From the IMG/VR virus record IMGVR_UViG_3300005095_000015, positions 1-64,000 of that record: a DNA stretch of 64,000 nucleotides; one strand, written 5' to 3'. The stretch comes from a virus. The position numbers were made by a program, and so were the translations under genes. Under the pieces are notes generated by a model. It ran no database searches. It had not been told where the DNA came from and worked only from the letters and a program-made list of their open reading frames with translations. This document shows positions 9,268 through 63,618 of the stretch, one piece after another; the stretch's first letter is position 1; every line of letters starts with the position of its first letter.

Positions 9268-9314
9268 GATCAAATCAAGAAAGCATGATTGCGGTAGTAA
9301 TGAGGAGGTGATAA

Positions 9315-12609: not shown

Positions 12610-12614
12610 TTTGT

Positions 12615-12643: not shown

Positions 12644-12735
12644 ATAATGTGAAGGAAAGCAGTTCAAGGAGGTGAAAGCGGCTATAACAAGAATAGTGGT
12701 TGAAGGGTTGAAAAAGGTTAAGGTAAAGTAAGGAG

Positions 12736-13791: not shown

Positions 13792-13804
13792 GGAGGAAAA
13801 TCAC

Positions 13805-13987
13805 ATGATACCTACTTACGCCGAGTTTCTTATCAAGTTTAAAGATTTGCTTTACAACTATCCATTGATTGTCATTTTACATGCATTTGAAGATTACCTG
13901 ACCGGTGGAGAGAATGCAGCTAAGCAGGTATTTATTGAGTATGATAAAATTTTAAATACAACTGAAAGGAGGTGTAGTGATGAGTAA
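13805..13987 (+). CDS. hypothetical protein
   Basis: SD AAGGAGG before ATG 13805. Confidence 0.55.
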   Translation: MIPTYAEFLIKFKDLLYNYPLIVILHAFEDYLTGGENAAKQVFIEYDKILNTTERRCSDE

Positions 13988-14135
13988 GAAGGTTGTTGTA
14001 GTACCCTGCGAAGTTTACTCTAGGGTAGTAGGTTATTTTAGACCAGTGCAGAACTGGAACAAAGGCAAGCAGCAGGAGTTCAAGGAGAGGAAGACCGTAA
14101 GGTTAGATTCTTTTAAAAAACAGTTGTCAAAGTAA
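13980..14135 (+). CDS. stand-alone glycyl-radical domain of class III RNR, 51 aa (not in ORF track)
   Basis: MSKKVVVVPCEVYSRVVGYFRPVQNWNKGKQQEFKER matches the canonical NrdD C-terminus; SD AAGGAGGTG. Confidence 0.9.
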   Translation: MSKKVVVVPCEVYSRVVGYFRPVQNWNKGKQQEFKERKTVRLDSFKKQLSK

Positions 14136-14152
14136 ATTAGGAGGGACTAGGT

Positions 14153-15115: not shown

Positions 15116-15128
15116 AGGAGGTGAGCTT

Positions 15129-15410
15129 ATGCCTCTTATTAGTTACAGGTGTCCGTACTGCAATGGTAAAGGTTCTTACCAGACTGTGTGTATGTTGTGT
15201 GAAGGTACAGGAAAGTTAGAAGAGAACGGACAAGAGGTGATTTGTTATAATTGCAATGGGAATGGTTACATTGAGCCTAAGTGTGATGTATGCCACGGTA
15301 AAGGCTTTATTGTCATGGATGTGGATGAGCACTTTGTAGATGCAATTGATTTGTATTCGTCCTATGAGGTTTGGGAAGTTTTTAAGATCAAGAAGTCTGA
15401 TTTGCCATAG
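15129..15410 (+). CDS. DnaJ-type zinc finger protein
   Basis: Four CxxCxGxG repeats. Confidence 0.75.
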   Translation: MPLISYRCPYCNGKGSYQTVCMLCEGTGKLEENGQEVICYNCNGNGYIEPKCDVCHGKGFIVMDVDEHFVDAIDLYSSYEVWEVFKIKKSDLP

Positions 15411-15421
15411 GAGGGTTTGAT

Positions 15422-16225
15422 ATGTTAAAGGTGGGAGATAAGGTAAAAGTAAAGACTTTTGAAGAGCTCAGTAAAAATGCTAAGGATGTGCTTGGTGATA
15501 ACAAATTGTTTTTTGGTTTTTCGATTCCGTATCTTACTTCTGAGATGCAAAGGTTTTGTGGTAAAGAAGTGACTATAGCTGCATGCCTGGGGAATCGCTT
15601 GTATTGGATTGAAGAGGATAATCATAGTCATACTTGGCATGAAATGTTTTTTGAATCACCTGAAGTGCTAGCAGAGGAACTAGATGAGGGAGTAAAGAAG
15701 GTGTTGAAAGACATTGTTGATAGATCAGATGTGTGTATAAAGAGCTTTGCTGGGGTTAAGCATGATGAAGGTAAAGCCCGCTTTGACCTCATTCCTCCAG
15801 AACCTCTCTGGGAACTTGCCAGACTTTATACCAAAGGTGCTGAGAAGTACGGAGACAGGAACTGGGAAAAGGGAATGAGATGGGGAAAGGTATTTGCTGC
15901 TATGATGAGACATGCTTGGAAGTGGTGGCAGGGTGAGGAGTATGATCCAGAGGACGGGCAACATCATCTTGTCTCAGTGGCTTGGTGTGCTTTTGCTCTT
16001 TATACTTACTATGTAAGAGGGGTAGGAGAGGATGACAGAGTGAAATCCAGAAAGAATTGCCCTGTCTATGAGCAAAGCAATTTCATTACCCATACTTGGG
16101 CTGATTGTCCTGGCGTATTTTCTATTCCTGATTATGAGGCTGGTGATTTGAAATGTAATGAATGCGGCGCTTCGTTGAGAGGCGAGATAGAGAATTTTGT
16201 TTCATCTCTCAGGTACAGAGGTTAA
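15422..16225 (+). CDS. dATP/dGTP diphosphohydrolase (DUF5664) domain protein with extra N- and C-terminal segments
   Basis: KHDEGKARFDLIP...GAEKYGDRNWEKG...MMRH...DPEDGQHHL. Confidence 0.8.
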   Translation: MLKVGDKVKVKTFEELSKNAKDVLGDNKLFFGFSIPYLTSEMQRFCGKEVTIAACLGNRLYWIEEDNHSHTWHEMFFESPEVLAEELDEGVKKVLKDIVDRSDVCIKSFAGVKHDEGKARFDLIPPEPLWELARLYTKGAEKYGDRNWEKGMRWGKVFAAMMRHAWKWWQGEEYDPEDGQHHLVSVAWCAFALYTYYVRGVGEDDRVKSRKNCPVYEQSNFITHTWADCPGVFSIPDYEAGDLKCNECGASLRGEIENFVSSLRYRG

Positions 16226-16228
16226 AAT
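16200..16228 (+). promoter_or_regulatory. phage promoter, motif A copy 4 (variant)
   Basis: TTTCATCTCTCAG-N10-TAAAAT, same spacing as the other copies. Confidence 0.7.
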
Positions 16229-16263
16229 ATAAAGTGAAGGAAAAATAGATCGAGGAGGAAGGG

Positions 16264-16865
16264 ATGGTTGAGTGGGAGAAAATATTGAAGGTAGACAGAG
16301 GATATCAACTTTTGATAGATGGCTTTACTTTTTATCAAGGTATTTATCGTGGTACAGTTGATGGCTTTTTGTTGTTCGCTTGGTATCATTGCGTAACTTT
16401 TCCGGAGGAAGAAAGAAAAGGTAAGGTTCAAATATATCCTATCTATGTGCAACCAAGTAGTCTTTCAGTTGCCTCTTTATCACCTTCTGCAAAGGAAGAG
16501 TTTGAACGGTTTACAAATGAAGAACTTTATGAAGTGGAGGAGCTGTTATGATAGTATTGGTTTTTACAAGTTTTGGAATGTTTATAGGTAAGGATGGTGG
16601 GTTAGATACAGAGAAGAGATTAGAAAACCCTTGTTTAGTTTTACAGTTACAAGCTATGTCTGATGGGAGAATATCATCGGGTTTAGTCCCTTTGGAGACA
16701 AAGTGGCTTAGGTTGAACTGTGACTTTGCGTTTTGTCCTGCACCTAAGCATTTTGAGGAAAAGTATTTATCAGCAGTTACTGGGATAGCAGTGGCAGATC
16801 ATTTAGATGTGAATCAGGTAAATCATTTTCTTAGCTCTTTGAAAAAGTTCAAGGGTGAGGGGTAA
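16264..16865 (+). other. two small hypothetical ORFs (16264-16551, 16548-16865)
   Basis: SD sites and overlapping stop/start codons. Confidence 0.55.
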
Positions 16866-16867
16866 GA

Positions 16868-17509
16868 ATGCGAAGAATATGTTTAAACATTCTCGTTCCT
16901 TCATTCATAGTATTTACAGCTTTTGGCTCGTTGTTTTTCCTGAGAGGTGTGGATAAACATCACGGTGTAAAAGTGGTGAGTAAGAAATCAGTAAGTAAGG
17001 CGTGCAAAAACAAACAGCAAAGAATTAAACAAATTCTTTATAAGAAAGCCTTGAGTTATTCTAAATCTTATGTACCGAAAAGTTTGGTGTTTTCTATAGT
17101 TGACCAGTGTCTAAAGGTTAATCATAGTCTATTGGTTCTTTCTATCATTACTGAGGAATCACATTTTGACATATTTGCAAGAAGTAGAAGTGGGGCGGTT
17201 GGGTGCGGGCAGATAAAGTGGAAGTTTTGGAAGGAGAGACTCAGAAGTGTTGGAATCAACTCGTATCGTGATATGTTTGATCCTAAACTTTGTGTGCAAG
17301 CTGTCAACTTTGTTTTTTCTTATTATTTAAACAAGGTTAAAGATCCTGTCAAAGCATTACAACTCTATTATTGTGGAGAGAATAATCCAGATTGCAAGGT
17401 AGGTAGGTACTATGCTGATAAGGTTTTAGCTACTTATGCGAGGTATAGTTTTGCATTGAGGCAGGGGGTTGATGATGAAAGAGAAATATTGGCATTTGGT
17501 AAAAGATAA
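16868..17509 (+). CDS. lytic transglycosylase (SLT family) with N-terminal membrane anchor
   Basis: EESHF...ARSRSGAVGCGQI...MFDP...ALQLYY...YADKV. Confidence 0.8.
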   Translation: MRRICLNILVPSFIVFTAFGSLFFLRGVDKHHGVKVVSKKSVSKACKNKQQRIKQILYKKALSYSKSYVPKSLVFSIVDQCLKVNHSLLVLSIITEESHFDIFARSRSGAVGCGQIKWKFWKERLRSVGINSYRDMFDPKLCVQAVNFVFSYYLNKVKDPVKALQLYYCGENNPDCKVGRYYADKVLATYARYSFALRQGVDDEREILAFGKR

Positions 17510-18015
17510 GCGGTTTGAGAACTGTGCTGAGTATCAGAGACCACCTTGGTGCGATTACAAGGAAGCACTTGATTATAGAATAGGATGCTGGAGATTAATA
17601 GATGGATCAATTACAAATAGTATGCAGTGTATAGGGTGCCCTCATTATAAATATAAAAAGCAGGAGGTGCAAGATGTTTAAAAGAGCTCTGCTTTTAGTG
17701 TTATTTCTGTTTGTATTTTGTGTTGGTTTGAGTAAGGCAGATCAGGTATTTTCAATTACAGAGTCAAGAGTTACTAATTGTTCGTATGGTTATGCTTTGC
17801 TGAGTTATTGTTTTTGGAAGAGTGATGAGTATACCTCTTGTAAGGATGTAACAACGAACTTTGCTTCTTTTGTGTACAAGTTGACTAATGATAATACTAT
17901 GGCTTCTACACTGGAGGATAGTTGTTATGATATATGTATTAGAGCAAAGAGCAACCCTATTCTTGGGTTAAAGCGTTTAGTTGATTACGGTTCCTCTTGC
18001 TATTTGGGTAGATAG
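17469..18015 (+). other. two small Cys-rich ORFs (17469-17681; 17674-18015 with signal peptide)
   Basis: MFKRALLLVLFLFVFCVGLSKA-D signal-peptide-like N-terminus. Confidence 0.55.
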
Positions 18016-40890: not shown

Positions 40891-40964
40891 GCCGGCGTAG
40901 CTCAACTTGGCAGAGCAGGGGATTTGTAATCCCTTGGGTGTGGGTTCAACTCCCTCCGCCGGCT
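40891..40964 (+). tRNA. tRNA-Thr(UGU), CCA not encoded
   Basis: Acceptor GCCGGCG/CGCCGGC, D arm GCTC/GAGC, anticodon arm GGGGA-TTTGTAA-TCCCT, T loop TTCAACT; one T-stem mismatch. Confidence 0.9.
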
Positions 40965-40990
40965 CTTAATCCAAGAGGAGGTGTTTAACG

Positions 40991-49685: not shown

Positions 49686-50324
49686 ATGAAGAAGCCTTGC
49701 AAAGATTACCTTCCTGATTATTTGAAAGAGAACGATTTCTTTGTATTGATAACGGACTTACTTGACTGGCTATTTGATGAGGAGTTGAGTATCGAGAATC
49801 TATCCCCATCCGAAAAGTACAATCTCGATGTAACTGATGAGGACGGACTTAAAGAGATAATGGCTGAGCTTGGTTTTGATTACATCAGTGATGTGGTAAA
49901 TTTAACCAAAGAAGAGCTGAAAACTTTAGTTCAGCACACCTTTTTACTTCACTATCTTAAAGGAACTAGAACAGGACTTGAACTTGCCTTAAAACTACTT
50001 GGAATAGAACACACAGTTGAAGAGTGGTTTGAAATGGATCCTCCTGGTGATCCTTATACCTTTAACCTCGTCATTGATATGCCGCTTAACCAGGTGCCTG
50101 AGCAGGTGCTTGATAAGCTTAGAACATTCTTTCGCTCCTATGTGTTTCCAAAGTGGATCATGTTCCTCACTTGGTACGGAGATATAGCTCAGGTAAGCGG
50201 TGCTTTTGGTGGATTTTCAAAAACCGAAGTGAGTGCAGAGTTTACCAGTTACATACCAGTACCAAGTGGATGGTTAGGAACTAGTGTTACTTCAATACCT
50301 GTAACTTTCGAGGCTACTTTGTAG
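49686..50324 (+). CDS. baseplate protein (P2 gpI / gp7-like)
   Basis: KGTRTGLELALKLLG...EEWFE...PYTF. Confidence 0.75.
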   Translation: MKKPCKDYLPDYLKENDFFVLITDLLDWLFDEELSIENLSPSEKYNLDVTDEDGLKEIMAELGFDYISDVVNLTKEELKTLVQHTFLLHYLKGTRTGLELALKLLGIEHTVEEWFEMDPPGDPYTFNLVIDMPLNQVPEQVLDKLRTFFRSYVFPKWIMFLTWYGDIAQVSGAFGGFSKTEVSAEFTSYIPVPSGWLGTSVTSIPVTFEATL

Positions 50325-51385: not shown

Positions 51386-53515
51386 ATGAGCACTTTAAAG
51401 GATAATCAGCTTTTAGTCCAAGATGTTATAACTAAAGGTATTGTGAGAGACATCAGAGCATACAATGGGTCTTTAACCGATGCTATAGCTGATATAGGTA
51501 GTGATGAGGTAACTCTACTCATCTCTGAGCCTATTACGGTCAATCAGGATTTGACTGTACCTGAGAATATATGTTTGAAAGTATTGAAAGGCTGTCCCAT
51601 TACAGTTGGGGTTAAAGCTCAGGCAAACGAAGTTATAGGTACAGGAAGCACAGCAGGTACTACATCCTTCAGTACCACCTTAAGTGATCCGCCTGTTGTT
51701 TGGAAATCGGTAACAGTGTCTTGGATAAGTGGAGGTGTAAGCTATACAGCAACTGATGATGGTAAAGGAAATATCAGCTCTCCCTATGTAAGTGGAACTA
51801 TTGACTATGATTCAGGAGCAATCTCTCTCACTTTTAGCACTGTTGCAGTTCCTGATGCAGGAACTAATATAATGTGTACTTATACTCCTGCTCATGTACT
51901 GACTATCAATGGAGCAATAGAAGCTGGACTGTGGCAGATATTCGACGGTCAAGGCAAAGTTACCGGCAATCCAAAGATCGAAGCCGTTTATCCAGAGTGG
52001 TTTGGAGCTAAGGGGGATGGGATGACGGATGATGCTCCTGCAATACAGAAAGCTATAGATTTTTGTGCGCAAAATCAAAAGGCTAAAGGCAGTTGTATTA
52101 AGCTTTCACGAAACCATTATAGGATAACTTCAAATATTTGTGTAAAAACCGATAATGTAACGATTGAAGGAGAAGGAGGCGGAAACTGGCAGAGCTCGGA
52201 TATCAACAATTTTGACTCTGCCGAGACTGTTATTGAGTACACTGGTGCAGATTACGCTTTTGTATGCGGAGACAACAGTGGAAGGACTTTCAGTGGTATA
52301 TGTTTTAGAGGTTTTAAGCTACTTTTGACGGGTGGGGGAGGTGGGATAAACTATGTTCGGTTATGTCATGGTAATTGCAATGTCGAAAATGTAGCTTTTT
52401 ATGGAAATGACGCTACTCCTTATTCGGGAGTTGGTATACGATATGGTGATATGTGTCAAAGTAATAGGGTTATAAACTGTTCTTTTTGGTATCTTGACTA
52501 TGGCGTATACCTTTATGGGTTGAATGACAATTTGGTCTTCATTGGTAATAAATTTATAAGGACAGGGACAGCTGGAATAAAACTTGGTGATTCAGCTTCT
52601 ACTTATACTGCTGGCAACAGTTTTCTTATTATAGGGAATCATTTTGGTAAGAATGGTAAAGCGGGAGTTTGGGTGTTCAAGAGCCCAAAGCCTGTTGCTA
52701 TCATAGGAAACTACTTTGAGAACTCAACAGACCTTGATGAAAGAGCGATAATAGTAGGGGATACTGGATACACAGCCTACTCTGTTGAGATAAGAGGGAA
52801 TGTTATATCGGGCTCTGGAATTTCAAATTATGGAATAGAATTGATAAATGTTGATGGTTGTGTGATCGAAAGCAACGCTCACATGGCGTATCTTGCGAAG
52901 TTTATACTTGTGTCTGGAGGGTCTGATGTAAGAAATGTTGTAGTAAGAAATAATTCTCGATTTTCTGGGAGTTATGGAGATTTGTCTGCCTATGATGGAG
53001 TTGTTGAATGGAAACCGAGCTCTACGAGTAATACTATCTATCTGAATACTCTAGGAGCAATTGTTTTAGCTGCAAGAGTGACGGGGAATAGCAACAACAA
53101 CTTTGCTGTTACTGCTGATGGTAAGTTAGAATGGGGGGATGGTATTAATCCTTTAGATATCGTTCTCTATAGGGCTGCTACAAAAAGACTGAACTTAATT
53201 GGGCACTTGCGAACGGAAGGGGGGGCTTTTTCTTCTGTGATTCAAACTTTTGTTGACGGAGATACTACCCCAAGTGTGGCCAATTCTAATGTATTTAGGA
53301 CAGCAAATACTTCAGCGACTTCAATTATACAGTTCGATGACGGTATAGATGGTCAAGAAATAACAGTTATTTTTGGCGATTCTAACACCACTATCGTTCA
53401 CAACAGTACAGCTGCTACTTATCCTATCTTGCTTAAAGGAGGCGTAAGTATTACACCTTCTACTAATACAGCTATAAAGTTTGTTTTCAGTGGAAACCGT
53501 TGGATAGAAGTGTAA
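51386..53515 (+). CDS. tailspike 1 (pectate-lyase-like beta-helix)
   Basis: PEWFGAKGDGMTDDAPAIQKAID; IGN/GN beta-helix repeats. Confidence 0.8.
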   Translation: MSTLKDNQLLVQDVITKGIVRDIRAYNGSLTDAIADIGSDEVTLLISEPITVNQDLTVPENICLKVLKGCPITVGVKAQANEVIGTGSTAGTTSFSTTLSDPPVVWKSVTVSWISGGVSYTATDDGKGNISSPYVSGTIDYDSGAISLTFSTVAVPDAGTNIMCTYTPAHVLTINGAIEAGLWQIFDGQGKVTGNPKIEAVYPEWFGAKGDGMTDDAPAIQKAIDFCAQNQKAKGSCIKLSRNHYRITSNICVKTDNVTIEGEGGGNWQSSDINNFDSAETVIEYTGADYAFVCGDNSGRTFSGICFRGFKLLLTGGGGGINYVRLCHGNCNVENVAFYGNDATPYSGVGIRYGDMCQSNRVINCSFWYLDYGVYLYGLNDNLVFIGNKFIRTGTAGIKLGDSASTYTAGNSFLIIGNHFGKNGKAGVWVFKSPKPVAIIGNYFENSTDLDERAIIVGDTGYTAYSVEIRGNVISGSGISNYGIELINVDGCVIESNAHMAYLAKFILVSGGSDVRNVVVRNNSRFSGSYGDLSAYDGVVEWKPSSTSNTIYLNTLGAIVLAARVTGNSNNNFAVTADGKLEWGDGINPLDIVLYRAATKRLNLIGHLRTEGGAFSSVIQTFVDGDTTPSVANSNVFRTANTSATSIIQFDDGIDGQEITVIFGDSNTTIVHNSTAATYPILLKGGVSITPSTNTAIKFVFSGNRWIEV
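51989..52042 (+). repeat. 54-bp exact repeat shared with 59716-59769
   Basis: TATCCAGAGTGGTTTGGAGCTAAGGGGGATGGGATGACGGATGATGCTCCTGCA. Confidence 0.9.
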
Positions 53516-53530: not shown

Positions 53531-55420
53531 ATGTCAGTAAAAATAACCTCTGACTACATCAGCACTCCAAACATCATCGATATCCGCCAGTACAGCACCT
53601 TATCCGAAGCTCTAACCCTCATAGGTTCCAACGAAGTTACCCTGCTTATTGCTGAGCCTTTTACAGTAGAGGAGAATGCAACAGTTCCTGAAAATATTTG
53701 TCTGAAGTTTACCAAGGGTGGAAAGCTTGTAATCAGTGCTGGATATACAGTTACAATAAATGGCGGGATTGAAGCTGGATTGTGGCAAATATTTGATGGA
53801 GATGGAAAGGTAACAGGTTCACCTAAAATCGAAGCTGTTTATCCAGAATGGTTCGGTGCAGTTGGTAATGGAGTTACGGATGATACATCCGCTTTTAACA
53901 AAGCAATTGATTTCGCTAAGACTTGTAATTTTGCTAAAGTTGAGTTAAGCGAAGCAGTTTATGTAGTGAGTAGTACACTATCACCATTGAATAATTCCTT
54001 TAATTCAATATCAATCGTGGGTAGAGGAAGATCGACAACTATAGATGGATCTGCAATTGGAAGTGAAGTTCCAATCTTTCAGCTAGTAGGAGGTTCCGGT
54101 GTCGTGACTTTGGGGTATATACAAGATCTTACAATCAAAGGAAGTGGAGCGGAAATAGGAATTGAAAATAAAGGATGTTGTGGTTTCAAATTTTACAGAG
54201 TAACTTTCAAAGGTCTTAAATATGGTATAGTATTCAGCAACGATATCGCTGCTGGAACATTCACAGAATATTCAGTTGCAGAGGAGTGTTCTTTCGAGTC
54301 AGATGTAGAAACAGCTGTCTTTTATAAGAGAGGAGCTGGTGATCCTAGCTTTCATGGTAGTGGTCTTAGAAAGTGCACGATAAATAATGGAGACACAATA
54401 ACAGCTCCTTCGATACGGATAGGGGATGCTATCGATACAGGTATTGTTTTGTATAACGCACCGTTGGACTTTCAAGTATGGACTCGCAATACTTATAATA
54501 TTATTGAAGCAAACGCATCTTTGATAACTACTTACGGAACAATTACAATAGAAAGATTCAATGGTACACCAACTCTTTGTAGTGGAACAACAATACACCA
54601 TGCAGGAGATGTATTGTTATGGGGTTCCACAGAAGGTGTGAAACTGGGGGATTTTGTCTTATGTGATCGACTTTGGACAAATTCAGACGGATCAATCAAC
54701 GCATTTGAAAAAACTACAAATTACTATGCAGAAACAAATGCTAATGAAAGTGTAACTTTATGTAAAGTAGACGAAGAAGGTAGTTTAATTTTTGTTCATT
54801 TAATTTCCAACAATTACGACAAAAAGTATTTGATTTGTGCTCACAAAGATAACTATGGTGGGGTTGGTGATGCTGGTTTCTTTCACGAAACAGTAACAGC
54901 CTTTGGTAGTGGGAGTGCAGTGGCCAGTAGCACTGTTGATACAACAATACACGAATTTTTTCTATCTCAACCAGCAATCTTGCAGCGAATAGATGCTTAC
55001 TTTCAATCTGCTTTTGCTCAGTATAATACGGCAGATTCAGCAGAGATTTTGATATTAAAAGGAACATCTGAAGTTGCATCACTCTCTTTGACACCAGGAA
55101 GCAAATATAATGCAAGTTGGGTGAATGTTGATCTTTCTACAGGAACTTACCAAATTGTTATTCGTGTAACATCTGCTGGAACAACTGCAGCAACACCTCC
55201 ACAATCAGGGAACATAACTCTTCGTTTAGTTCATCCTTACATTACACTTAATTCGTTTGATGTTGCAGGCTTAGGAGATCCCACTTTTAGCATAGACAGC
55301 GCAGGAAATCTGATAGTATCAAACCCAAACTGGGCAACTACCGCTGTCAATGTTTCTATCCGTGTAGTAAAAATAGGTACTATGCGTACTCCTTATTTTA
55401 ATAATTTTGTACAACAGTAG
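53531..55420 (+). CDS. tailspike 2 (beta-helix)
   Basis: Same N-terminal anchor; PEWFGAVGNGVTDDTSAF. Confidence 0.8.
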   Translation: MSVKITSDYISTPNIIDIRQYSTLSEALTLIGSNEVTLLIAEPFTVEENATVPENICLKFTKGGKLVISAGYTVTINGGIEAGLWQIFDGDGKVTGSPKIEAVYPEWFGAVGNGVTDDTSAFNKAIDFAKTCNFAKVELSEAVYVVSSTLSPLNNSFNSISIVGRGRSTTIDGSAIGSEVPIFQLVGGSGVVTLGYIQDLTIKGSGAEIGIENKGCCGFKFYRVTFKGLKYGIVFSNDIAAGTFTEYSVAEECSFESDVETAVFYKRGAGDPSFHGSGLRKCTINNGDTITAPSIRIGDAIDTGIVLYNAPLDFQVWTRNTYNIIEANASLITTYGTITIERFNGTPTLCSGTTIHHAGDVLLWGSTEGVKLGDFVLCDRLWTNSDGSINAFEKTTNYYAETNANESVTLCKVDEEGSLIFVHLISNNYDKKYLICAHKDNYGGVGDAGFFHETVTAFGSGSAVASSTVDTTIHEFFLSQPAILQRIDAYFQSAFAQYNTADSAEILILKGTSEVASLSLTPGSKYNASWVNVDLSTGTYQIVIRVTSAGTTAATPPQSGNITLRLVHPYITLNSFDVAGLGDPTFSIDSAGNLIVSNPNWATTAVNVSIRVVKIGTMRTPYFNNFVQQ

Positions 55421-55433: not shown

Positions 55434-56018
55434 ATGAAACCGCTTTGGTCTGATTGGCGTAAAGTTGGCTTTTCTTTGATGAGATGGGGAATTAACATTG
55501 CCAAGCCTTTACTTACAAACAACCAATTTTGGCTACTTGAAACAGTAACCTCCGATACTCAGCTTGAGCTTGCAAGGAAGCTTACCATCACTCAAGTTAC
55601 CGCAAACGAACTTTCACAGCTCACCAAGCGGCAGCTAAATGTTGAGGCTTGGTGTTGGGATAGTAAGTATAACTGTATTAAACTAACCGATTTTCAGGCA
55701 ATCATAGCTTCCGACTTTACCAACCGAATGAAATGGCTCGCTGAGACCTGGGATTGTGATAACTTCGCATCATTATTCTCCTCACTTATGAGCCTTATCT
55801 ACAACTTCAATGGAGCAGGCATAGCACTTGGAGCTGTTGTAAATAAGCAAACGAAACAGATAGAAGGTTACCATGCCTACAACTGCGTGATACTTGACAC
55901 TAACAACACCAAGAAACTCTATCTCTACGAACCACAAGCCGACATACTTAAGCCAGCAGCAAAAGAAACAGACATGGAATGGGGTGTTTATAGAACCGAT
56001 TTAGTTATCTATCACTAA
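55434..56018 (+). CDS. papain/transglutaminase-fold cysteine enzyme (agglutinin C-terminal-like)
   Basis: WDCDNFA...HAYN...YEPQ catalytic triad pattern. Confidence 0.65.
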   Translation: MKPLWSDWRKVGFSLMRWGINIAKPLLTNNQFWLLETVTSDTQLELARKLTITQVTANELSQLTKRQLNVEAWCWDSKYNCIKLTDFQAIIASDFTNRMKWLAETWDCDNFASLFSSLMSLIYNFNGAGIALGAVVNKQTKQIEGYHAYNCVILDTNNTKKLYLYEPQADILKPAAKETDMEWGVYRTDLVIYH

Positions 56019-56028
56019 GGAACCAAAG

Positions 56029-56700
56029 ATGACAACCTTCATCATTCTAGGTTTACATAGAAGTGGCACCTCGCTGACAGCTTGCTTGTTGCATCATCTA
56101 GGTGTTCATCTAGGTGACACCCTCATCGGTGCTAATGAAGGTAACCCCAAGGGACATTATGAAAATATTGACATAACTCTTACCCACGAAGAGTGGTTGA
56201 GAGAGCTTGGCGGTTCTTGGTGCGAGGTGCCCTCTGTTGCTAAGGTTTGTAATAGCCTGGAGCGATTTGTTCCAAAGGCAAAGGAATTGGTTGAAAAACA
56301 TAAGAAGGATGGGTTATGGGGATGGAAAGATCCAAGGAACACTATCTTTTTACCTGTTTACTTAGAACTCTATCAGCAAGGACTTTTAGGGAATCTAAAG
56401 GTAATGGTCTGTACACGCAACTTTGTTTCTGCAGCAAGGTCAGTTTGTATAAGAGATAAATTTGATCAGCAAAAAGCATTCAAAGTTGTGTTTGCTTACC
56501 TCGAACACCTACAACATAACTTAAATCTGCTTTTCTTAGAAAAGATACCAGTGTTGTTTGTTGAATTTGAAAAGTACTTCAATCCAAAGTTTGCCAGAAG
56601 TCAGGTAGAAGAGATTGTGAGGTTTGTGTTAGGAAGACGGGATGTACAGCTTACTGATAAACTACTAACCTTGATTGATCCTACTCTCTGGAGGAGTTAA
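56029..56700 (+). CDS. sulfotransferase-family protein
   Basis: ILGLHRSGTS PAPS loop, NPKGHYE, WGWKDPR, RNFVSAARS. Confidence 0.8.
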   Translation: MTTFIILGLHRSGTSLTACLLHHLGVHLGDTLIGANEGNPKGHYENIDITLTHEEWLRELGGSWCEVPSVAKVCNSLERFVPKAKELVEKHKKDGLWGWKDPRNTIFLPVYLELYQQGLLGNLKVMVCTRNFVSAARSVCIRDKFDQQKAFKVVFAYLEHLQHNLNLLFLEKIPVLFVEFEKYFNPKFARSQVEEIVRFVLGRRDVQLTDKLLTLIDPTLWRS

Positions 56701-57416
56701 TGGATAAGGTAAGAGTGGTAATACCTACTGCTTTCAAGCATGAAAATGTTAGCTATGCAATACATTCCTTCATTGACCATAATGCACCTTGGATTGATAG
56801 CTTAGAAGTAGTGAACAGGGGAACATTTGCTGAGAACTGCAATTACGGAGCTGAGAAGTGTAGAGCTCCTTGGTTGCTTTTTCTAAACGACGACACTTAT
56901 ACGAGAAACTCTATCCTGAAGTTGATGCTAGACACCGCTAAGCAGTTTGATGCTCAAGTTGTAGGTGCTTATTTACAGTTCCCTGATGGTTCAATCCAAC
57001 ACTACGGAGTGTATTACACAGACGCTGGTTTACCTTTTCACTTGTTTTACAAACAGTACTTAGAAAGTGCTCTGCATTTTGGTGTGAAGCCTAGATTGGA
57101 ACCACACCTTGTTCCTTCTGTCACTGGAGCTTGCATCCTGATTAGAACTGAGCTTTTCTTTGACCTTGGTGGATTTGACACAGTATTTGTTAACGGATTT
57201 GAAGATGTAGATTTTAATCTAAAAGCCTTAAATGTTGGAGCAAAGATAGCTCTTTGCACAGAGACAAGTATTGTGCATTACGAGAAGGTTTCAAGGGGCG
57301 ACCCGAATAAAAAGAACAAAATGGATAACAGATTCCATGAGAACTTAAAGCTATTGACAAATAGATGGGACAGAAATAAGGTTCGTAGACTTGTCAAGGA
57401 GTATCAACCGTGGTAA
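56700..57416 (+). CDS. GT2-family glycosyltransferase
   Basis: FAENCNYG, FLNDD, VTGACILI, GGFD..F.NGFEDVDF. Confidence 0.85.
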   Translation: MDKVRVVIPTAFKHENVSYAIHSFIDHNAPWIDSLEVVNRGTFAENCNYGAEKCRAPWLLFLNDDTYTRNSILKLMLDTAKQFDAQVVGAYLQFPDGSIQHYGVYYTDAGLPFHLFYKQYLESALHFGVKPRLEPHLVPSVTGACILIRTELFFDLGGFDTVFVNGFEDVDFNLKALNVGAKIALCTETSIVHYEKVSRGDPNKKNKMDNRFHENLKLLTNRWDRNKVRRLVKEYQPW

Positions 57417-58045
57417 GGATTCTTATCCATACTCCTGTAGTGAAACCAAATTGGCTGAATATTATTTCGACTTTAGAACTTAGGAAACCTGTAAGGTTTG
57501 CTTGGTACATCACGAAGGGGCAGGATAATCAAAATATCTATGATATAAGGGGGCAAGAGACAGATGGTAGGTGGAGAAAGTTTGTTGCTGACAAGATGAA
57601 CAGAGCTAGAGAGTTGGTTCTTTCTGAAGGCTACGATTACATGCTCAACATTGAGCATGACCACATGTTTACACCAAATACTTTAGAGTTGCTCCTCAAA
57701 CACGCAAAGCCTGACATCTATATCTCAGCTCTCTACAGACCAAGACCAAGCAGAAACCCAAGATCAGTGTACTGTTTACATATAAAAGCTCAAAGAGGTG
57801 GAAGGTTTCCTGATAAAGAGTTTGTTGACAGTAATGAATTAATCAAAGCGTTTACCGTGGTATTTGGCTTCACCTTATTTGGCAGAAAGGTTCTAGAGAG
57901 GTTAGATTTTGATGAGGGTTTAGACGGAACATTTGCTTGGAAAGCTGAAAGAGTAGGTATAAAAAGGTATGTCTTAACTACCGCAAGAATAGCTCACATA
58001 GACAGAGACGGGAAGGTGTATTGGGCATGGTTAGACGAATCTTAG
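57410..58045 (+). CDS. GT-A fold glycosyltransferase
   Basis: GYDYMLNIEHDH, FGFTL, HIDRDG. Confidence 0.7.
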   Translation: MVRILIHTPVVKPNWLNIISTLELRKPVRFAWYITKGQDNQNIYDIRGQETDGRWRKFVADKMNRARELVLSEGYDYMLNIEHDHMFTPNTLELLLKHAKPDIYISALYRPRPSRNPRSVYCLHIKAQRGGRFPDKEFVDSNELIKAFTVVFGFTLFGRKVLERLDFDEGLDGTFAWKAERVGIKRYVLTTARIAHIDRDGKVYWAWLDES

Positions 58046-58467
58046 TTTCAGCTAAGGTTACCTTTACCATTACTGCTTTCTTTCTCACAGTTTTGTCATT
58101 GGATGCAAATGGATTTTGGGTAGATTACTTGTTTGTAGAGGACAAGGAGGTGCAAACAGTTTACCGAACAGCTAAGAACTACGATTACTTGCTTTGGTTA
58201 AGAGAAGATTTGCTTCCTTCTGCGGATTGCTTACATAGGATGGTTGCTAAGGGACACCCTGTAGTGACTGGTATTTGGAGAGGATGTGAGCATAAAGATA
58301 CAGAGGTTGAACTAGGCTGCTTGCTAATTCAAACAAACTTACTCTCTACTATAGATTTGAAAAGCAAATTTGTTAAGCTACCAGTTAATCCCTTCATTGC
58401 CAAAGATGTTGTTTGCGGTTTAATCTCAGACAACGGGTCAGTAGTTTACCCTAGAGGTGAGCTATGA
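58027..58467 (+). CDS. degenerate short GT-A-like protein
   Basis: YDYLLWLRED, PVVTG, GCLLI. Confidence 0.5.
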   Translation: MVRRILVSAKVTFTITAFFLTVLSLDANGFWVDYLFVEDKEVQTVYRTAKNYDYLLWLREDLLPSADCLHRMVAKGHPVVTGIWRGCEHKDTEVELGCLLIQTNLLSTIDLKSKFVKLPVNPFIAKDVVCGLISDNGSVVYPRGEL

Positions 58468-59075
58468 CAAAGGTACTTATCCATGTACCTATCTTCAATA
58501 ATTGCCCGCAGTTTTGGGAAAGTTTTTGGAAGTTAGACATTGAAGGGCTTGAAGTTGACTACTTTTTCACTAAGACAGATAAAGTCAAGACAAGGCTAGA
58601 TGATAAAGGCAACTATGATGCAAGAGATGTAGGAGTAAACTTACCCTGGAAAATGGAGAAGGCCAGGAAAGCCGCATTGGAAGGTGGTTATGATTATTTG
58701 TTTAATATAGAAGACGATCACATCATACCCAGTGACGCTTTAAAGAAGCTGCTTAGCTTCGGCAAAGATGTCATTTCAGGAGTTTACAGGTTGAGACCAA
58801 GCAAGTTTCCAGCCAAGCCTATTGCTGCTACGAAAACAGATAGAAAGTCTTGGGTTACAGTTGAGGATTTAGAAAAGACTCCTTTGCTAGAGTGTCATCT
58901 CGTGCCTTGGGGATGCTTATTACTCAGCAGGAGGGTACTTGAATCTGTTTCATTTGAAGGTGCTTTAGACGGGTTGTTCGTGGATAGGCTTGACAAAGCT
59001 GGATTCAAAAGATGGCTTGCAACTGAGGTAAGGTTGGGACATATAGATAGAGATGGAACTATTATTTGGGTTTAA
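58464..59075 (+). CDS. GT-A fold glycosyltransferase (paralog of 57410)
   Basis: GYDYLFNIEDDH, DVISGVY, WGCLL, HIDRDG. Confidence 0.75.
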   Translation: MTKVLIHVPIFNNCPQFWESFWKLDIEGLEVDYFFTKTDKVKTRLDDKGNYDARDVGVNLPWKMEKARKAALEGGYDYLFNIEDDHIIPSDALKKLLSFGKDVISGVYRLRPSKFPAKPIAATKTDRKSWVTVEDLEKTPLLECHLVPWGCLLLSRRVLESVSFEGALDGLFVDRLDKAGFKRWLATEVRLGHIDRDGTIIWV

Positions 59076-59088: not shown

Positions 59089-61176
59089 ATGGGAAGAGCT
59101 AAACTCACAGCAACTGGACTTAACTATGTAGATGACAATCAGATAGAGCATACTGTGGTGGACTTAACTAAGCAGAGCTTAATCTCTAAGTTTCCGCTTG
59201 TCGATATAAGGGCTTACGGAGCCAAAGGAGATGGAGTGTATGATGATGCTCAGGCTATAACAGCCGCTCTTAATGAGATAGGGGCAAACGAATCTACCTT
59301 GCTGATACCTATTCCTATCTATCTTATGTCAGATGTAACTATCCCTGAAAATGTATGCTTAAAGTTTACCAAGGGCGGAAAGTGCGTAGTTGAAACGGAA
59401 GATATAAAGAGTGAACAGATTGGAGTAGGAGATACTGCTGGAACAACAACTTTTTATTTGAGCAGAACACCTGTGCTCAAAGATTCTGAGAAGATTTATG
59501 TAGATGGTGTTTTGCAAACAAGAGATACAGATTACGCAATTGATTATGAGACAGGAGAGATTGTGTTTACTACTGCTCCCTCGGCTGGAGCTGTTATTAC
59601 AGCTGATTACACACACAGATTCGTGTTGACAATAGATGGAGGGATACAAGCTGAACTCTTTCAGATCTTCTCTGGAAACGGAAAGATAACAGGTTCTCCA
59701 AAGATTGAGGCGGTGTATCCAGAGTGGTTTGGAGCTAAGGGGGATGGGATGACGGATGATGCTCCTGCATTTCACAAGTTGATAGAATTTGCTGAGAATG
59801 CGGTGAGAAGAATAGCATTGCAGAGCAAAACTTACTTATTGGCCTCGTACCAAGTAAGCACTTACATTCTCTACATTACATTCCCCGTTGTAATAGAAGG
59901 AAATGGTACAGTTATCAAGAAAGGACAGACTGGCTACTGTATAGTGATCGAAGGAACTGATGTCAGTCCTTTGGATTTTGTAGAAATATCAAATCTCGAA
60001 ATTGATGGAAACTCTTTAGGGCTACAATGCCTGACGATAAATTATGCTAAAAAAGTGATTTTAAAGAATGTTAAGGCTCACAATACAAGTTCTGACGATT
60101 GTATTTCTATTGCAAGAACAGAACAGGCTGATTTGACTAACATAGAAGCATACACAGCGGGGGCTTGGCCTTTGTTCTTCTATATGGTCGACGATGTCAG
60201 AATAAACGGATTCAGAGGATACAACTCTGCGAACAATGTAGATGTCATAGATGTTAAAGGAAGTTCCAATATTTTTATCAGAAATGTTGTAATAACAGGA
60301 TCTGCAAGGTACGGTATTAGAATCCGCAACAATGGAGTCAAAGTTTTAAAAACCTTGCTCATAGAAAATGCCGATATAACAAGTGACTGGGATGGTATTT
60401 CGATAGAAGCTGATCAAACTGACGGAACAACATCCGATATCTACTGTGTCATGTTAAACAACATCGCAACGAAGCGTATAGAGGCTACGGGATATTCAAC
60501 TACTCCAATTAAGTGCATCTATGTTAATAACCTGAAGGCAGAAGACTGGGGTGGAGACTATGCAACCGCCTTCAACTACGCCGAGCTTGTTAAGATAGAA
60601 AATAGCTACTTCGACATAGGATTCTACGGAATTTGTAATGCGCAGAATTGTAAACTGGTTATTGTTGAAGGTAATGTCATCAAGAATATAGGAGCAGGTA
60701 GTACGATAACAAGACCTGTTATTAGAATATACAACACGGAACATTTATATGTCAAAAACAATTTAGTAGAAGGTGGAACTTATACAGGATACTTAGTGGA
60801 AGATGACAGTACTTCAAAGATCGTACCGGTGTTTGAAAACAACAAGCTCTTTAATGTTCCTTCTTTGTTCAATGGTGACTTATATGTTTCCTTTCCTGAT
60901 GGAGACACAGCTCCCTCAGTTGCAAATGGAAATTACTTCAAAACGGTCAATACCAACACAGCAGGGACAGCTATCATTGAATTTAAAGACGGAATCCCCG
61001 GGCAGCGCATTACTGTAATCTTTACTGATGGGCTTACGACAGTAGTACATAATTCAGCTTCCGCTACACATCCTATTATTCTCAAAGGCGGAATTAACGC
61101 AGCTCCTCCGGCTGATTCAACTATGGAATTTGTATTTGACGGTAGCAAATGGTACGAAGTAAGTAGGAGCTTTTAA
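59089..61176 (+). CDS. tailspike 3 (beta-helix)
   Basis: YGAKGDG, PEWFGAKGDG; C-terminal domain shared with tailspike 1. Confidence 0.8.
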   Translation: MGRAKLTATGLNYVDDNQIEHTVVDLTKQSLISKFPLVDIRAYGAKGDGVYDDAQAITAALNEIGANESTLLIPIPIYLMSDVTIPENVCLKFTKGGKCVVETEDIKSEQIGVGDTAGTTTFYLSRTPVLKDSEKIYVDGVLQTRDTDYAIDYETGEIVFTTAPSAGAVITADYTHRFVLTIDGGIQAELFQIFSGNGKITGSPKIEAVYPEWFGAKGDGMTDDAPAFHKLIEFAENAVRRIALQSKTYLLASYQVSTYILYITFPVVIEGNGTVIKKGQTGYCIVIEGTDVSPLDFVEISNLEIDGNSLGLQCLTINYAKKVILKNVKAHNTSSDDCISIARTEQADLTNIEAYTAGAWPLFFYMVDDVRINGFRGYNSANNVDVIDVKGSSNIFIRNVVITGSARYGIRIRNNGVKVLKTLLIENADITSDWDGISIEADQTDGTTSDIYCVMLNNIATKRIEATGYSTTPIKCIYVNNLKAEDWGGDYATAFNYAELVKIENSYFDIGFYGICNAQNCKLVIVEGNVIKNIGAGSTITRPVIRIYNTEHLYVKNNLVEGGTYTGYLVEDDSTSKIVPVFENNKLFNVPSLFNGDLYVSFPDGDTAPSVANGNYFKTVNTNTAGTAIIEFKDGIPGQRITVIFTDGLTTVVHNSASATHPIILKGGINAAPPADSTMEFVFDGSKWYEVSRSF

Positions 61177-61221: not shown

Positions 61222-61401
61222 ATGAAGTTTAACTTTACAGTTATTTTAGCAGTAGTGATGGCAATTGCAACTAAGCTCCAGCAGGCAACCGAAGATAATC
61301 AGATTACAGTGAACGAGCTTTTTGAAATTGCTCAGGGAGTTGTACAAGCACTTGGCATTGGGGATCATGTAGTTGTTAAGTTTGACAAGAAGGAGAACTA
61401 A
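61222..61401 (+). CDS. small hydrophobic protein, 59 aa (not in ORF track)
   Basis: SD AAGGAGGTG; MKFNFTVILAVVMAIATKL... Confidence 0.65.
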   Translation: MKFNFTVILAVVMAIATKLQQATEDNQITVNELFEIAQGVVQALGIGDHVVVKFDKKEN

Positions 61402-61608
61402 ATGTTTTCCTTTGCTGAAGCATTAAAACTTCTAAACAAAGCTGTTAACATTCTACTCAAGGTCTATCGTAAGTACCAACTCAAGGAAGTGGAGGAAACT
61501 TATGAAAAGATTCACGAGGATCCTGCTAATGCTTTTGCTGAGCACTTCGATACTAAGCTGCGCAAGATGCCCAAGACCTCCAGCACAGATGATTCCTCCG
61601 AAGCCTAA
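61402..61608 (+). CDS. putative i-spanin-like protein
   Basis: Overlaps the lipoprotein ORF out of frame (Rz/Rz1 layout); membrane anchor is weak. Confidence 0.4.
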   Translation: MFSFAEALKLLNKAVNILLKVYRKYQLKEVEETYEKIHEDPANAFAEHFDTKLRKMPKTSSTDDSSEA

Positions 61609-61723
61609 CATTCATCCTTACAGCTGGAATGGAGGTATTTGCCTAGACAAGCAGGACACAGAGAACTTGTTGAAGTACATTGTTCAACTTGAAAACTGTT
61701 GCAAGGCTTGTATTACACAATAA
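61502..61723 (+). CDS. putative o-spanin lipoprotein
   Basis: MKRFTRILLMLLLSTSILS-C lipobox, Pro-rich linker, Cys residues. Confidence 0.65.
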   Translation: MKRFTRILLMLLLSTSILSCARCPRPPAQMIPPKPNIHPYSWNGGICLDKQDTENLLKYIVQLENCCKACITQ

Positions 61724-61744
61724 CTCAAAGGAGGTGATTAAACT

Positions 61745-61966
61745 ATGAACGAAACAAAGAAATGGTGGCAAAGTAAGACAATTTGGGGAGCAATAGTTAC
61801 TATACTTGCTATAATCTACGGACTTACAACAGGACACATGCCCTCCCAAGAAACCCAGCAAGCCATAACAAACAACATTGGACAGATTGTCTCTGCCATA
61901 GTTGCCATTATAGGCGCTATTACTGCTATAATCGGACGGCTTAAAGCTGATAAGATTATAAAGTAG
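61745..61966 (+). CDS. putative holin
   Basis: KKWWQSKTIWG plus two transmembrane helices. Confidence 0.55.
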   Translation: MNETKKWWQSKTIWGAIVTILAIIYGLTTGHMPSQETQQAITNNIGQIVSAIVAIIGAITAIIGRLKADKIIK

Positions 61967-61979
61967 CTTGCTAATTCAA

Positions 61980-61999
61980 AGCCCGCTACCCAGCGGGCT
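61980..61999. terminator. GC-rich hairpin
   Basis: AGCCCGCT-ACCC-AGCGGGCT; short U run on the - strand only. Confidence 0.5.
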
Positions 62000-62022
62000 A
62001 CTCCCCTAAAGGAGTTAGAGCG

Positions 62023-62325
62023 GTGAATGAATTTCAGTTTTTCGATAAGCATCCCTTTCTCGCAGGATTTGTGCTTATACTATGCATCCCACTTGCTTTA
62101 ATAGTAAAAAACTTGCTTAAGTCTACAGGTATCGATTTGCAAAGATTTATTGAGAAGTTAACAAAAGTGGAATCAAACATAGACTTATTAGAAGAGAAAC
62201 TGTCAAAGGAGTCTGACCTTGGTAAGTTGAGACACGAGCAAATTCTTTCCTCTTTGCGTGAGATAAAGGAAGAGATCAGAGAGCTGAAGTCATCTATAAA
62301 TAAAGGTAACTTCGGAGGACTGTAA
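62023..62325 (+). CDS. single-transmembrane coiled-coil protein (holin-like)
   Basis: N-terminal transmembrane helix followed by heptads. Confidence 0.45.
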   Translation: MNEFQFFDKHPFLAGFVLILCIPLALIVKNLLKSTGIDLQRFIEKLTKVESNIDLLEEKLSKESDLGKLRHEQILSSLREIKEEIRELKSSINKGNFGGL

Positions 62326-63143
62326 TGCAACTTTGTAAACAGTGCAAAAAGCACTGCCTACCCATCAGTTTCTCAGACTACATAACTCAGTACTTCGGAT
62401 TATTAGATGAGAATATAATTGTTCCTGACATAGAGATAGATAATGGTTTATTCAAACGAATGGCTAGGTTATCTTCAGCTACAGCTTCAGGACTTAGCTA
62501 CTTCTACTCACTAAAAAGCGAAGTGATGAAGCAAATCTATAGCAGCACTATGTTTTTTCATGCTAGCACACTTTACCTGATTGATATAGGTGTTGAATTG
62601 ATTCTCGACTGGTACAAGGTTATCTCTGCTTGGAACAAGTTTCTTGGTATTAGGGATGAGAAGTGCAGGAATTTTAATTCTTTCTTAGTGTCGTCGTTTA
62701 AAGAACTGATTACGAAGGCAATAAAAGTGAAGAGAAAGCTCGGTGATGTATTGTCAGAGAGAGGGCAACTCATTGCCGAGTATACGATAAAAAGCCATAG
62801 CAAAGTTGGTGAGCAATGGTTTTACCCAAAGTTAAAAGAACTCGATCCTAGTAAGAGCGAGGATTTTTATGTAAATTTTGTTTACGAAGTAACATCTTTG
62901 CTTTCAACCTTTATCAATGTATTTATAGGTGTTGCCTTGAGTGCTGATCAGCTATTAGAGAACAAAAGGATAATTTACACACAAGGATTTGCCCATCTGT
63001 TTTTAGACGGTGTTGATGTAGTAAAGATTTTAGTTAACACTATAGGGATTGAACCTAGAGAGGTTAGAGTGCTCAGACCTGACATATTGACCACAGCAAG
63101 GATAAATGTAGCTGAGCTGGGTTTGCATAGCCATGTGTATTAG
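62325..63143 (+). CDS. hypothetical protein
   Basis: 272-aa ORF with overlapping start/stop codons. Confidence 0.55.
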   Translation: MQLCKQCKKHCLPISFSDYITQYFGLLDENIIVPDIEIDNGLFKRMARLSSATASGLSYFYSLKSEVMKQIYSSTMFFHASTLYLIDIGVELILDWYKVISAWNKFLGIRDEKCRNFNSFLVSSFKELITKAIKVKRKLGDVLSERGQLIAEYTIKSHSKVGEQWFYPKLKELDPSKSEDFYVNFVYEVTSLLSTFINVFIGVALSADQLLENKRIIYTQGFAHLFLDGVDVVKILVNTIGIEPREVRVLRPDILTTARINVAELGLHSHVY

Positions 63144-63618
63144 AATCGCTGCATTTAAGGGAATAACTCTTACCTCTAAAATAATCAGGTTCTGGACTAG
63201 AAGCTGTTACTCACATGTTGCTTATGTGTTTGATGAGGGAATTATAGAAGCGTGGAAATTTAAAGGTGGTATGAGATGGGGTTACTCCGATTGGAGCTTG
63301 CACACTCCAGGCACTCCAGTTGAGATTTGGGAGAAAGAAGTTACCCCCGAGCAAAAGGCTATAGTTGAAGGTGTGCTTAAGGCTATGGCTAATGCTAAGA
63401 CTAAGTATGACTGGAAAGGGATTCTGGGTTTTGTGGTTAAGTGTGATGATTGGAAGGATAAGTACTTTTGTAGTGAGGGTGTTGCTTATGCATTGGTCAA
63501 AGCAGGTATTTGGCCTAAAGAGTTAAACATCCATGTAATCCATCCAGGCTACTTTGTACAATTAGCCTTGGTTTCAGGATTTAAAAAGATAAAAGAGTTT
63601 ACAGTAGGGAGGTGTTAG
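63133..63618 (+). CDS. permuted papain-like NlpC/P60 (YiiX-type) amidase
   Basis: YSHVA...KYDWKG...YFCSE, His before Cys. Confidence 0.75.
   Translation: MCIRIAAFKGITLTSKIIRFWTRSCYSHVAYVFDEGIIEAWKFKGGMRWGYSDWSLHTPGTPVEIWEKEVTPEQKAIVEGVLKAMANAKTKYDWKGILGFVVKCDDWKDKYFCSEGVAYALVKAGIWPKELNIHVIHPGYFVQLALVSGFKKIKEFTVGRC

Follow-up and report, generated by a model that had tools for sequence, protein, structure and literature searches.

The 64,000-nucleotide stretch of DNA analyzed here (the window) comprises the first 64 kb of IMG/VR record IMGVR_UViG_3300005095_000015, a 95,675-bp genome with direct terminal repeats that is rated 100% complete and that belongs to an uncultured tailed phage, a myovirus. 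Between tailspike genes 2 and 3 lies a cassette of five genes (O2 to O6, ∼3 kb) encoding a predicted sulfotransferase followed by a series of glycosyltransferase (GT) family proteins. O2 to O6 all run in the same direction, overlap one another end to end, and encode soluble cytoplasmic enzymes, and we are highly confident that these enzymes are real and that they are functionally coupled. Their product is probably a sulfated glycan. With regard to the acceptor of that glycan, the virion proteins of the phage itself are our best single guess, offered tentatively and placed ahead of a glycan of the host envelope. The five genes of the cassette, and the neighboring gene O1, are arranged as follows.

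55434-56018, + strand: O1, 194 amino acids, MOA/PSL-type Cys-His-Glu domain; neighbor of the cassette
56029-56700, + strand: O2, 223 amino acids, predicted minimal 3'-phosphoadenosine-5'-phosphosulfate (PAPS)-type sulfotransferase, PF13469-like
56700-57416, + strand: O3, 238 amino acids, predicted GT2-family glycosyltransferase
57410-58045, + strand: O4, 211 amino acids, predicted minimal GT-A glycosyltransferase, paralog of O6
58021/58027-58467, + strand: O5, 146 to 148 amino acids, shortened and degenerate GT-A paralog
58464-59075, + strand: O6, 203 amino acids, predicted minimal GT-A glycosyltransferase

The genes are tightly packed. From tailspike gene 2 through O1 to O6 and on to tailspike gene 3, the successive spacings are +13, +10, -1, -7, -25 (or -19), -4, and +13 nt, with the start of O3 and the stop of O2 overlapping by 1 nt. 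An earlier reading made from the letters of the DNA and its open reading frames (ORFs), the sequence-only reading, had placed six ORFs between tailspikes 2 and 3, with the sulfotransferase and GT genes overlapping at start and stop codons, and its coordinates proved exact. The motifs that it quoted were all found again, namely DCDNF/HAYN/EPQ in O1, LGLHRSGTS and WKDPR in O2, YDY..NIEHDH in O4, YDY..LREDL in O5, and YDY..NIEDDH in O6, and the orientation shared with the virion genes and the late-operon position were likewise supported. The GT genes thus sit inside the virion gene block, between tailspikes, with 13-nt gaps and on the same strand, and co-transcription of the cassette with the tailspike genes is likely. 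The ribosome-binding site of O1 is a strong AGGAGG, the GC and third-codon-position GC (GC3) contents of the cassette are the same as those of the genome, and promoter-like and terminator-like matches in the cassette region were not more common than in shuffled sequence. By a crude test of hydrophobicity, the 19-residue Kyte-Doolittle mean reached 1.1 to 1.5 in five of the ORFs and 1.97 at the N terminus of O5, a segment that aligns with β1-α1 of O6. The cassette genes encode no flippase, no polymerase, and no initiating transferase, and none of them showed a clear membrane segment, the O5 N terminus being borderline.

The sulfotransferase, O2, gave no Pfam match by direct hmmscan even at an E value of ≤10, so its family assignment rests on homologs, on a family profile, and on the predicted fold. 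NCBIfam likewise gave no match, and a phmmer search of the PDB returned only chance matches to ClpC. A search of 5.8 billion proteins yielded 114 homologs, most of which carry PF13469 and/or PF00685. In an alignment of 27 sequences, the invariant columns were G8, R11-S12-G13-T14-S15, E45, W97-G98, K100, R130, and S138. The R11-S-G-T-S15 segment corresponds to the 5'-phosphosulfate loop (5'-PSB), K100-D-P-R to the KDP strand, and R130/S138, which align with the corresponding segment of the tyrosylprotein sulfotransferases (TPSTs), to the 3'-phosphate-binding (3'-PB) pair; by analogy, E45 is the putative catalytic base. When the family profile was compared with the PDB, TPST1/2 matched with an E value of 7e-12, followed by the CurM sulfotransferase (CurM ST), Stf1/Stf9, and the cytosolic SULTs, to an E value of 1e-4. 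An AlphaFold2 (AF2) model of O2, with a predicted local distance difference test (pLDDT) score of 96.5, had TPST2 as its best Foldseek match (E value of 8e-6), and VIA gave Z scores of 14.1 to 14.6 for TPSTs (14.6 over 187 residues), 12.7 for CurM ST, and 12.1 for Stf1.

Adenylate kinases reached a VIA Z score of ∼12 against the same model, and because this margin below the sulfotransferases is modest, it was the motifs that settled whether O2 might be a kinase. The O2 loop has no Lys after its second Gly and is therefore not the kinase Walker A motif GxxxxGK[ST]; the missing lysine, the remaining motifs, and the profile rule a kinase out. The sequence-only reading had assigned O2 to the sulfotransferase family while allowing that this P-loop protein might prove to be a kinase. 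Profile and structure comparisons favored the sulfotransferase, by way of the PF13469 homologs, the TPST matches, and the invariant RSGTS and R130/S138 residues. Alignment and model together support the prediction that O2 is a PAPS-type glycan sulfotransferase. The genome has no APS (adenosine 5'-phosphosulfate) kinase, and PAPS would therefore come from the host. In a FastTree phylogeny, viral and bacterial members of the family were largely separate, with 7 to 8 label changes against ∼40 expected under a sampling that is biased. The O2 branch fell in no supported clade, and its nearest neighbor, with 38 to 40% identity, was the viral sulfotransferase of locus L001.

The glycosyltransferases are of two kinds. 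O3 barely passed the cut-offs of two GT2 models, PF10111 with 27.6 bits (cut-off, 27.3) and PF00535 with 23.9 bits (cut-off, 23.3), in keeping with the one GT2 gene recognized earlier. Direct Pfam and NCBIfam scans gave no significant match for O4, O5, or O6. O4 and O6 are 32% identical (E value of 2e-31), and O5, which is ∼55 residues shorter, matches O6 with an E value of 1e-7. O6 carries an acidic motif, E83-D84-D85, and a C-terminal H193; O4 has the corresponding NIEHDH (H-D-H) together with the His, and D85 is invariant in the O4/O6 family. In O5 (LREDL), only the "ED" of the acidic motif is kept and the C-terminal His is replaced, and O5 is probably noncatalytic. The proposal of three GT-A paralogs consequently held for O4 and O6, which are intact, and less well for O5, which is truncated and degenerate and has lost the conserved His.

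A profile of the O4/O6 family (A4), built from 12 sequences of which nine were metagenomic or viral-contig homologs, matched A197 of Sulfolobus turreted icosahedral virus (STIV) in the PDB with an E value of 1.3e-5, and also Mnn9 and the collagen galactosyltransferase COLGALT1. Five of the 12 sequences matched Anp1 and four matched GT2. The AF2 model of O6 (pLDDT, 91.3) had 215 PDB matches at an E value of ≤0.001, and among the matches listed, nearly all were GT-A enzymes; Foldseek found A197 (E value of 7e-9; TM score, 0.62 to 0.66), COLGALT1 (TM score, 0.69), Mimivirus R699, the GT domain of LH3, Mnn9, and TarP. The atlas neighbors of O6 were nearly all viral clusters of small, Anp1/GT2-like GTs. 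The profiles and the model support the assignment of O3 as a GT2 enzyme and of O4 and O6 as paralogous minimal GT-A enzymes of an A197/Anp1/GT25-like type.

Coupling of the sulfotransferase to the glycosyltransferases is supported by four independent lines: neighboring genes, direct adjacency, domain fusions, and synteny. Sulfotransferases of the O2 type were found in 63 viral contigs, in some of them within virion gene modules, and among the 150 genes within two positions of a viral sulfotransferase, GT2 (16), Anp1 (5), and other GTs prevail; further frequent neighbors are methyltransferases, sugar-nucleotide epimerases, and more sulfotransferases, with one APS kinase. An O6-like GT directly adjoins the sulfotransferase in loci L012/13, L022, L046/47, and L048, and the gene order of sulfotransferase followed by an O3-like GT2 recurs in L036. 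Among 53 long bacterial homologs, 25 carry the sulfotransferase and an O3-like GT2 domain on a single polypeptide (phmmer E values down to 6.5e-25); these fusions reach a length of 2,115 amino acids and contain, besides the sulfotransferase, between one and three O3-like GT2 domains, as in L072 and L073. A viral fusion of 546 amino acids (L023/L024, 9980-11620) combines a sulfotransferase at residues 1 to 225 with an O6-like GT-A domain at residues 365 to 543 (E value of 6e-9).

Synteny comes from L203, a metagenomic relative in which the order O3, O4, a gene in the O5 position, and O6 is kept with 46 to 59% identity (46% for the O3 homolog and 50% for the O4 homolog). The gene in the O5 position is of similar size and only weakly similar (E value of 0.002), and it lacks the acidic motif, which suggests that O5 is a retained noncatalytic paralog. 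A first metagenome scan for related loci returned nothing, and a second gave L203 and L204. Viral contigs queried with O6 or with a 342-amino-acid neighbor yielded no related locus. In a set of 50,697 phage records, megablast returned no match to the cassette, and tblastn with O2, O3, and O6 turned up no more than a few matches that were distant or lacked annotation. On the basis of the fusions and the synteny, we infer that the sulfotransferase and the GTs work in series on one acceptor. That they form one system had been proposed from their arrangement in the window, and the fusions, the adjacency kept elsewhere, and the synteny agree with this proposal.

The nature of the substrate may be judged from the bacterial relatives. 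The 337 bacterial and archaeal loci of the sulfotransferase family derive from Chloroflexota, Solirubrobacterales, Verrucomicrobiota, cyanobacteria, and others. The neighbors of the bacterial sulfotransferases include ABC_tran (10), Wzt_C (9), ABC2_membrane (7), GT2/GT4 enzymes, methyltransferases (∼17), and sugar-nucleotide enzymes. By its gene content, this neighborhood is the signature of ABC-transporter-dependent (Wzm/Wzt) O-polysaccharide clusters, whose chains are capped by modification of their ends. Because the relatives sit in such clusters, we favor a glycan over a tyrosine as the substrate, even though the TPSTs were the best matches.

The GTs would assemble a short oligosaccharide on the acceptor from nucleotide sugars of the host, and the sulfotransferase would then sulfate it with PAPS from the host, possibly capping its end in the manner proposed for the bacterial relatives. 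Judged from position alone, the cassette would be transcribed late, with the tailspike genes, and the acceptors would be the tailspikes or other surface-exposed virion proteins. The outcome would be a sulfated glycan coat, analogous to the virion glycosylation of mycobacteriophages. Several observations favor such a coat. The cassette lies among tailspike genes, includes no flippase, polymerase, or export component, and belongs to a genome in which no integrase was found: the tyrosine integrase model PF00589, which was positive in 14 of 14 control genomes, had no match in the complete genome, and serine integrases were not searched. The closest viral sulfotransferase, that of L001 (40% identity; region 7924-17824), lies in an 8-kb island that immediately precedes a siphovirus-type tail tube gene; the island contains genes for a GT4, a methyltransferase, the sulfotransferase, a GT2, a GT1-like enzyme, an epimerase, a GT9-like enzyme, and a 683-amino-acid GT2. 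SU10-type capsid and adaptor genes lie no more than two genes from the sulfotransferase in a few loci. Finally, the best structural matches of the O6 model are the viral A197 and the protein-glycosylating COLGALT1, LH3, and Mimivirus R699, which would suit a protein acceptor.

Other observations weigh against a virion acceptor. The bacterial relatives of the sulfotransferase belong to Wzm/Wzt clusters, where lipid-linked glycans serve as acceptors. Late co-transcription is deduced from gene spacing alone. Neither the capsid protein nor any other virion-module protein of more than 100 amino acids has a Ser/Thr-rich C-terminal tail: the last 30 residues contain 2 Ser/Thr in the capsid protein and 5 in the sheath, and of the 35 proteins of that size whose genes lie between 27 and 62 kb, the Tail_P2_I-like protein (49686-50324) had the most, with 10, and all others had ≤7. 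No mucin-like protein is encoded near the cassette. The tetrapeptide TAGT occurs in 7 copies against 0.42 expected, and we considered it as an independent glycosylation sequon and rejected it; four of the copies are one conserved strand of a homologous β module. The islands of L047 and L022 are found not among tail genes but upstream of DNA methyltransferase, terminase, and portal genes, and for this reason we regard the placement of such islands as variable. Within the sensitivity of BLAST, the tblastn searches with O2, O3, and O6 found no match in a Mycobacterium phage.

The β-rich module just mentioned, with weak similarity to DUF2460/phrog_6128, occurs in the capsid, the baseplate wedge, and tailspikes 1 and 3 (at 35055, 49279, 51650, and 59434) and in a 261-amino-acid protein encoded at 64007-64792. 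Its first strand has the pattern G-T/V-G-D/S-T-A-G-T-T-x-F, which explains most of the TAGT excess.

Two relatives indicate how the surroundings of the cassette vary. L007 carries homologs of the genes at 63133, 64007, and 64803, then a sulfotransferase gene that runs into the end of the contig. In L203, the 3' neighbor of the cassette is a homolog of the gene at 64803 and not a tailspike gene. From these gene orders, the cassette appears to keep a distal tail/lysis neighborhood while its exact partners shuffle.

The strongest competing explanation, which we consider possible though rather unlikely, is remodeling of the host envelope. The cassette would then act in the cytoplasm on lipid-linked intermediates of O-polysaccharide, capsule, or extracellular polysaccharide (EPS), adding sugars and a sulfate cap, and the altered or terminated polymer would be one that the depolymerase tailspikes recognize, resulting in masking of the receptor or exclusion of competing phages. 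The ABC transporter and Wzt_C genes flanking the bacterial homologs of O2 speak for this, as does the fact that the O3-like GT2 fusions have the architecture of ABC-transporter O-polysaccharide synthases or terminators. The islands of L047, L022, and L048 include a nucleotide-sugar epimerase and belong to an accessory region that precedes the terminase gene, and in phages P22, Sf6, and ε15, O-antigen conversion genes adjoin the tailspike gene. However, since the genome is complete and no integrase was detected in it (serine integrases aside, as noted above), there would be no lysogen to protect, and the cassette occupies the end of what is presumably the late operon, beside lysis-like genes, which would leave little time for a change of the cell surface. 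The cassette also lacks a flippase, a polymerase, an initiating transferase, and any clear membrane protein, and the O4/O6 family is nearly all viral.

Sulfation of protein tyrosines is improbable. O2 would in that case act like a TPST on virion or host proteins, independently of the GTs, and TPSTs are indeed its best profile (E value of 7e-12) and structural (Z score of 14.6) matches. CurM ST and Stf1 follow closely, however, and a best match to TPST discriminates little because PF13469 is broad and the TPSTs, CurM, Stf1, and Stf9 are its main solved members. Moreover, gene context and fusions tie the family to GTs and O-polysaccharide export, and the catalytic domain of the TPSTs is longer than O2 by ∼80 residues.

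Least probable of all is hypermodification of DNA, with the GTs, and possibly the sulfotransferase, decorating modified bases against restriction: the cassette sits among tailspike genes, a thymidylate-synthase-like hydroxymethylase was not detected in the complete genome, a 7-deazaguanine pathway gene, a QueC homolog, lies outside the window (85013-85660, L202; E value of 1e-69), ∼26 kb from the cassette among other nonstructural genes, and we know of no glycosylated 7-deazaguanine. The Pfam TGT model revealed no DpdA in the genome at an E value of ≤0.01. In favor of a DNA substrate, most characterized phage GTs act on DNA. A virome study also counts sulfotransferases among auxiliary genes, citing Iyer et al. 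2013 for phage GT/sulfotransferase-based nucleotide modification systems (PMC10829341).

The neighboring gene, O1, is probably unrelated to the cassette, an accessory gene for an MOA-type Cys-His-Glu (papain-like) protease-like protein. It matched Pfam PF18022 with an E value of 5e-6, just above the cut-off, and PSL (PDB 3phz) with an E value of 4.5e-4; MOA also aligns, over DCDxFA, HAYN, and EPQ. The triad C108, H147, and E166 is invariant in 10 homologs. O1 shares these catalytic Cys, His, and Glu residues with the C-terminal cysteine protease domain of the fungal lectins MOA and PSL (PF18021/PF18022; 2iho and 3phz). Unlike those lectins, it is a stand-alone protein of ∼190 amino acids without a ricin-B lectin domain. 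The O1 family is large and mostly viral and consists of stand-alone proteins of ∼150 to 200 amino acids with the invariant MOA/PSL-type triad (loci L150-L201). In 24 nonredundant viral loci, its neighbors were mixed (ferredoxin, PhoH, helicase, endolysin, a few tail fibers, and one glycosyltransferase), with no conserved link to GTs or sulfotransferases, and a role for O1 as a cassette component was rejected. For this reason, the six ORFs of the sequence-only reading are taken as five cassette genes, O2 to O6, and one neighbor.

The virion genes were named from PHROG and Pfam scans of the genome. The following features, listed by position in the record, form the setting of the cassette.

27872: portal
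32795: head protease
34578: major capsid protein
39108: tail sheath
40891-40965: a single tRNA-Thr gene (anticodon TGT), directly after the tail sheath gene
47908: baseplate wedge
49686-50324: P2-I-like baseplate protein (Tail_P2_I-like)
51386-53515, + strand: tailspike 1, pectate-lyase/β-helix (PF12708, PF25692, tailspike PHROGs)
53531-55420, + strand: tailspike 2, pectate-lyase/β-helix (PF12708, PF25692, tailspike PHROGs)
59089-61176, + strand: tailspike 3, pectate-lyase/β-helix (PF12708, PF13229, PF25692)
65313: Amidase_3 protein

The three tailspike genes have in common a segment of 164 nt (51900-52063, 53751-53914, and 59627-59790) with 70 to 77% identity, and those of tailspikes 2 and 3 share an additional 50-nt segment with 80% identity, both of which are consistent with module exchange between the genes. 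On the 3' side of tailspike 3, small ORFs at 61222-62325 encode paired membrane segments of a holin-like type, a signal for a lipoprotein (LSC), and a membrane anchor followed by a coiled coil. These features suggest a lysis cassette with holin-, lipoprotein-, and spanin-like proteins. Neither the small ORFs nor the 161-amino-acid protein encoded at 63133-63618 had a Pfam match; the latter has Cys/His motifs, and a homolog 54% identical to it adjoins the sulfotransferase in L007.

Returning to a glycan on the virion, we put forward, more speculatively than for this one phage, that several tailed-phage lineages, the present one included, decorate their own particles with a sulfated O-glycan by means of a portable sulfotransferase-GT cassette derived from bacterial O-polysaccharide synthase/terminator proteins, with a catalytically dead O5 kept as a nonenzymatic subunit. 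A full-text literature search found no description of a phage sulfotransferase acting on virions, nor of such a cassette, in agreement with the earlier remark that a sulfated glycan on phage virions was not known from any description. To our knowledge, mycobacteriophages are the only phages in which virion glycosylation is known; there, it protects the particles against antibodies. If the virion is the acceptor, the particles would carry a sulfated viral glycocalyx, of a kind not yet described in a bacterial virus, and its strongly anionic character could affect adsorption, stability, aggregation, interactions with mucus or EPS, and the immune recognition of phages. If the host surface is modified instead, a virulent phage would, unusually, be remodeling the very polysaccharide attacked by its tailspikes. 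Given the recurrence of sulfotransferase-GT islands in 63 viral contigs and the bacterial GT fusions, the function looks to be general among phages and uncharacterized so far, rather than a one-off. Although the phage is uncultured, a small cassette of soluble enzymes is accessible to co-expression.

The closest functional parallel would be found in the mycobacteriophages, in which the GT genes for virion glycosylation lie with the virion genes; Freeman et al. reportedly showed in 2023 that phage-encoded GTs modify capsid and tail proteins. Capsid and tail-tube glycans of Che8, Corndog, and Myrna are described in one article (PMC12619734). The GTs are phage encoded in those systems as they are here, where virion proteins are the proposed acceptors. 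Unlike the mycobacteriophage systems, the present one shows no detected homology to them and no Ser/Thr-rich tails, includes a sulfotransferase, and belongs to a myovirus with depolymerase tailspikes and a different host. STIV A197 (2c0n), the best profile and fold match of O4 and O6, resembles them in its length of ∼200 amino acids, its GT-A fold, and its DxD-type motif. It differs in coming from an archaeal virus, in its ∼14% identity, and in that its own acceptor is putative; the capsid protein of STIV is glycosylated. The P22 gtrABC, Sf6 oac, and ε15 seroconversion genes likewise place glycan-modifying genes beside a glycan-recognizing tailspike. Those phages are temperate, however, and the proteins are membrane proteins acting in the periplasm, whereas no integrase and no clear membrane protein were found here.

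Among sulfotransferases, TPST1/2 (3ap1 and 5wri) have the same fold as O2 and share its RSGT loop (5'-PSB), its KDP strand, and the Arg...Ser pair of the 3'-PB, whose 8-residue spacing is identical. O2 is shorter, has only 15 to 18% identity to them, and occurs in a genomic context that points to a glycan and not to a peptide. The bacterial sulfotransferase-GT2 multidomain proteins of Wzm/Wzt clusters share with the cassette the LWGWKDPR sulfotransferase family and the O3-like GT2 domain. In the phage, by contrast, these domains are separate small genes, unaccompanied by a transporter, a Wzt carbohydrate-binding module, or a methyltransferase, and within the biased sampling noted above, the sulfotransferase falls among viral and not among bacterial sequences. 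The bacterial multidomain proteins are functionally comparable to the chain terminator WbdD.

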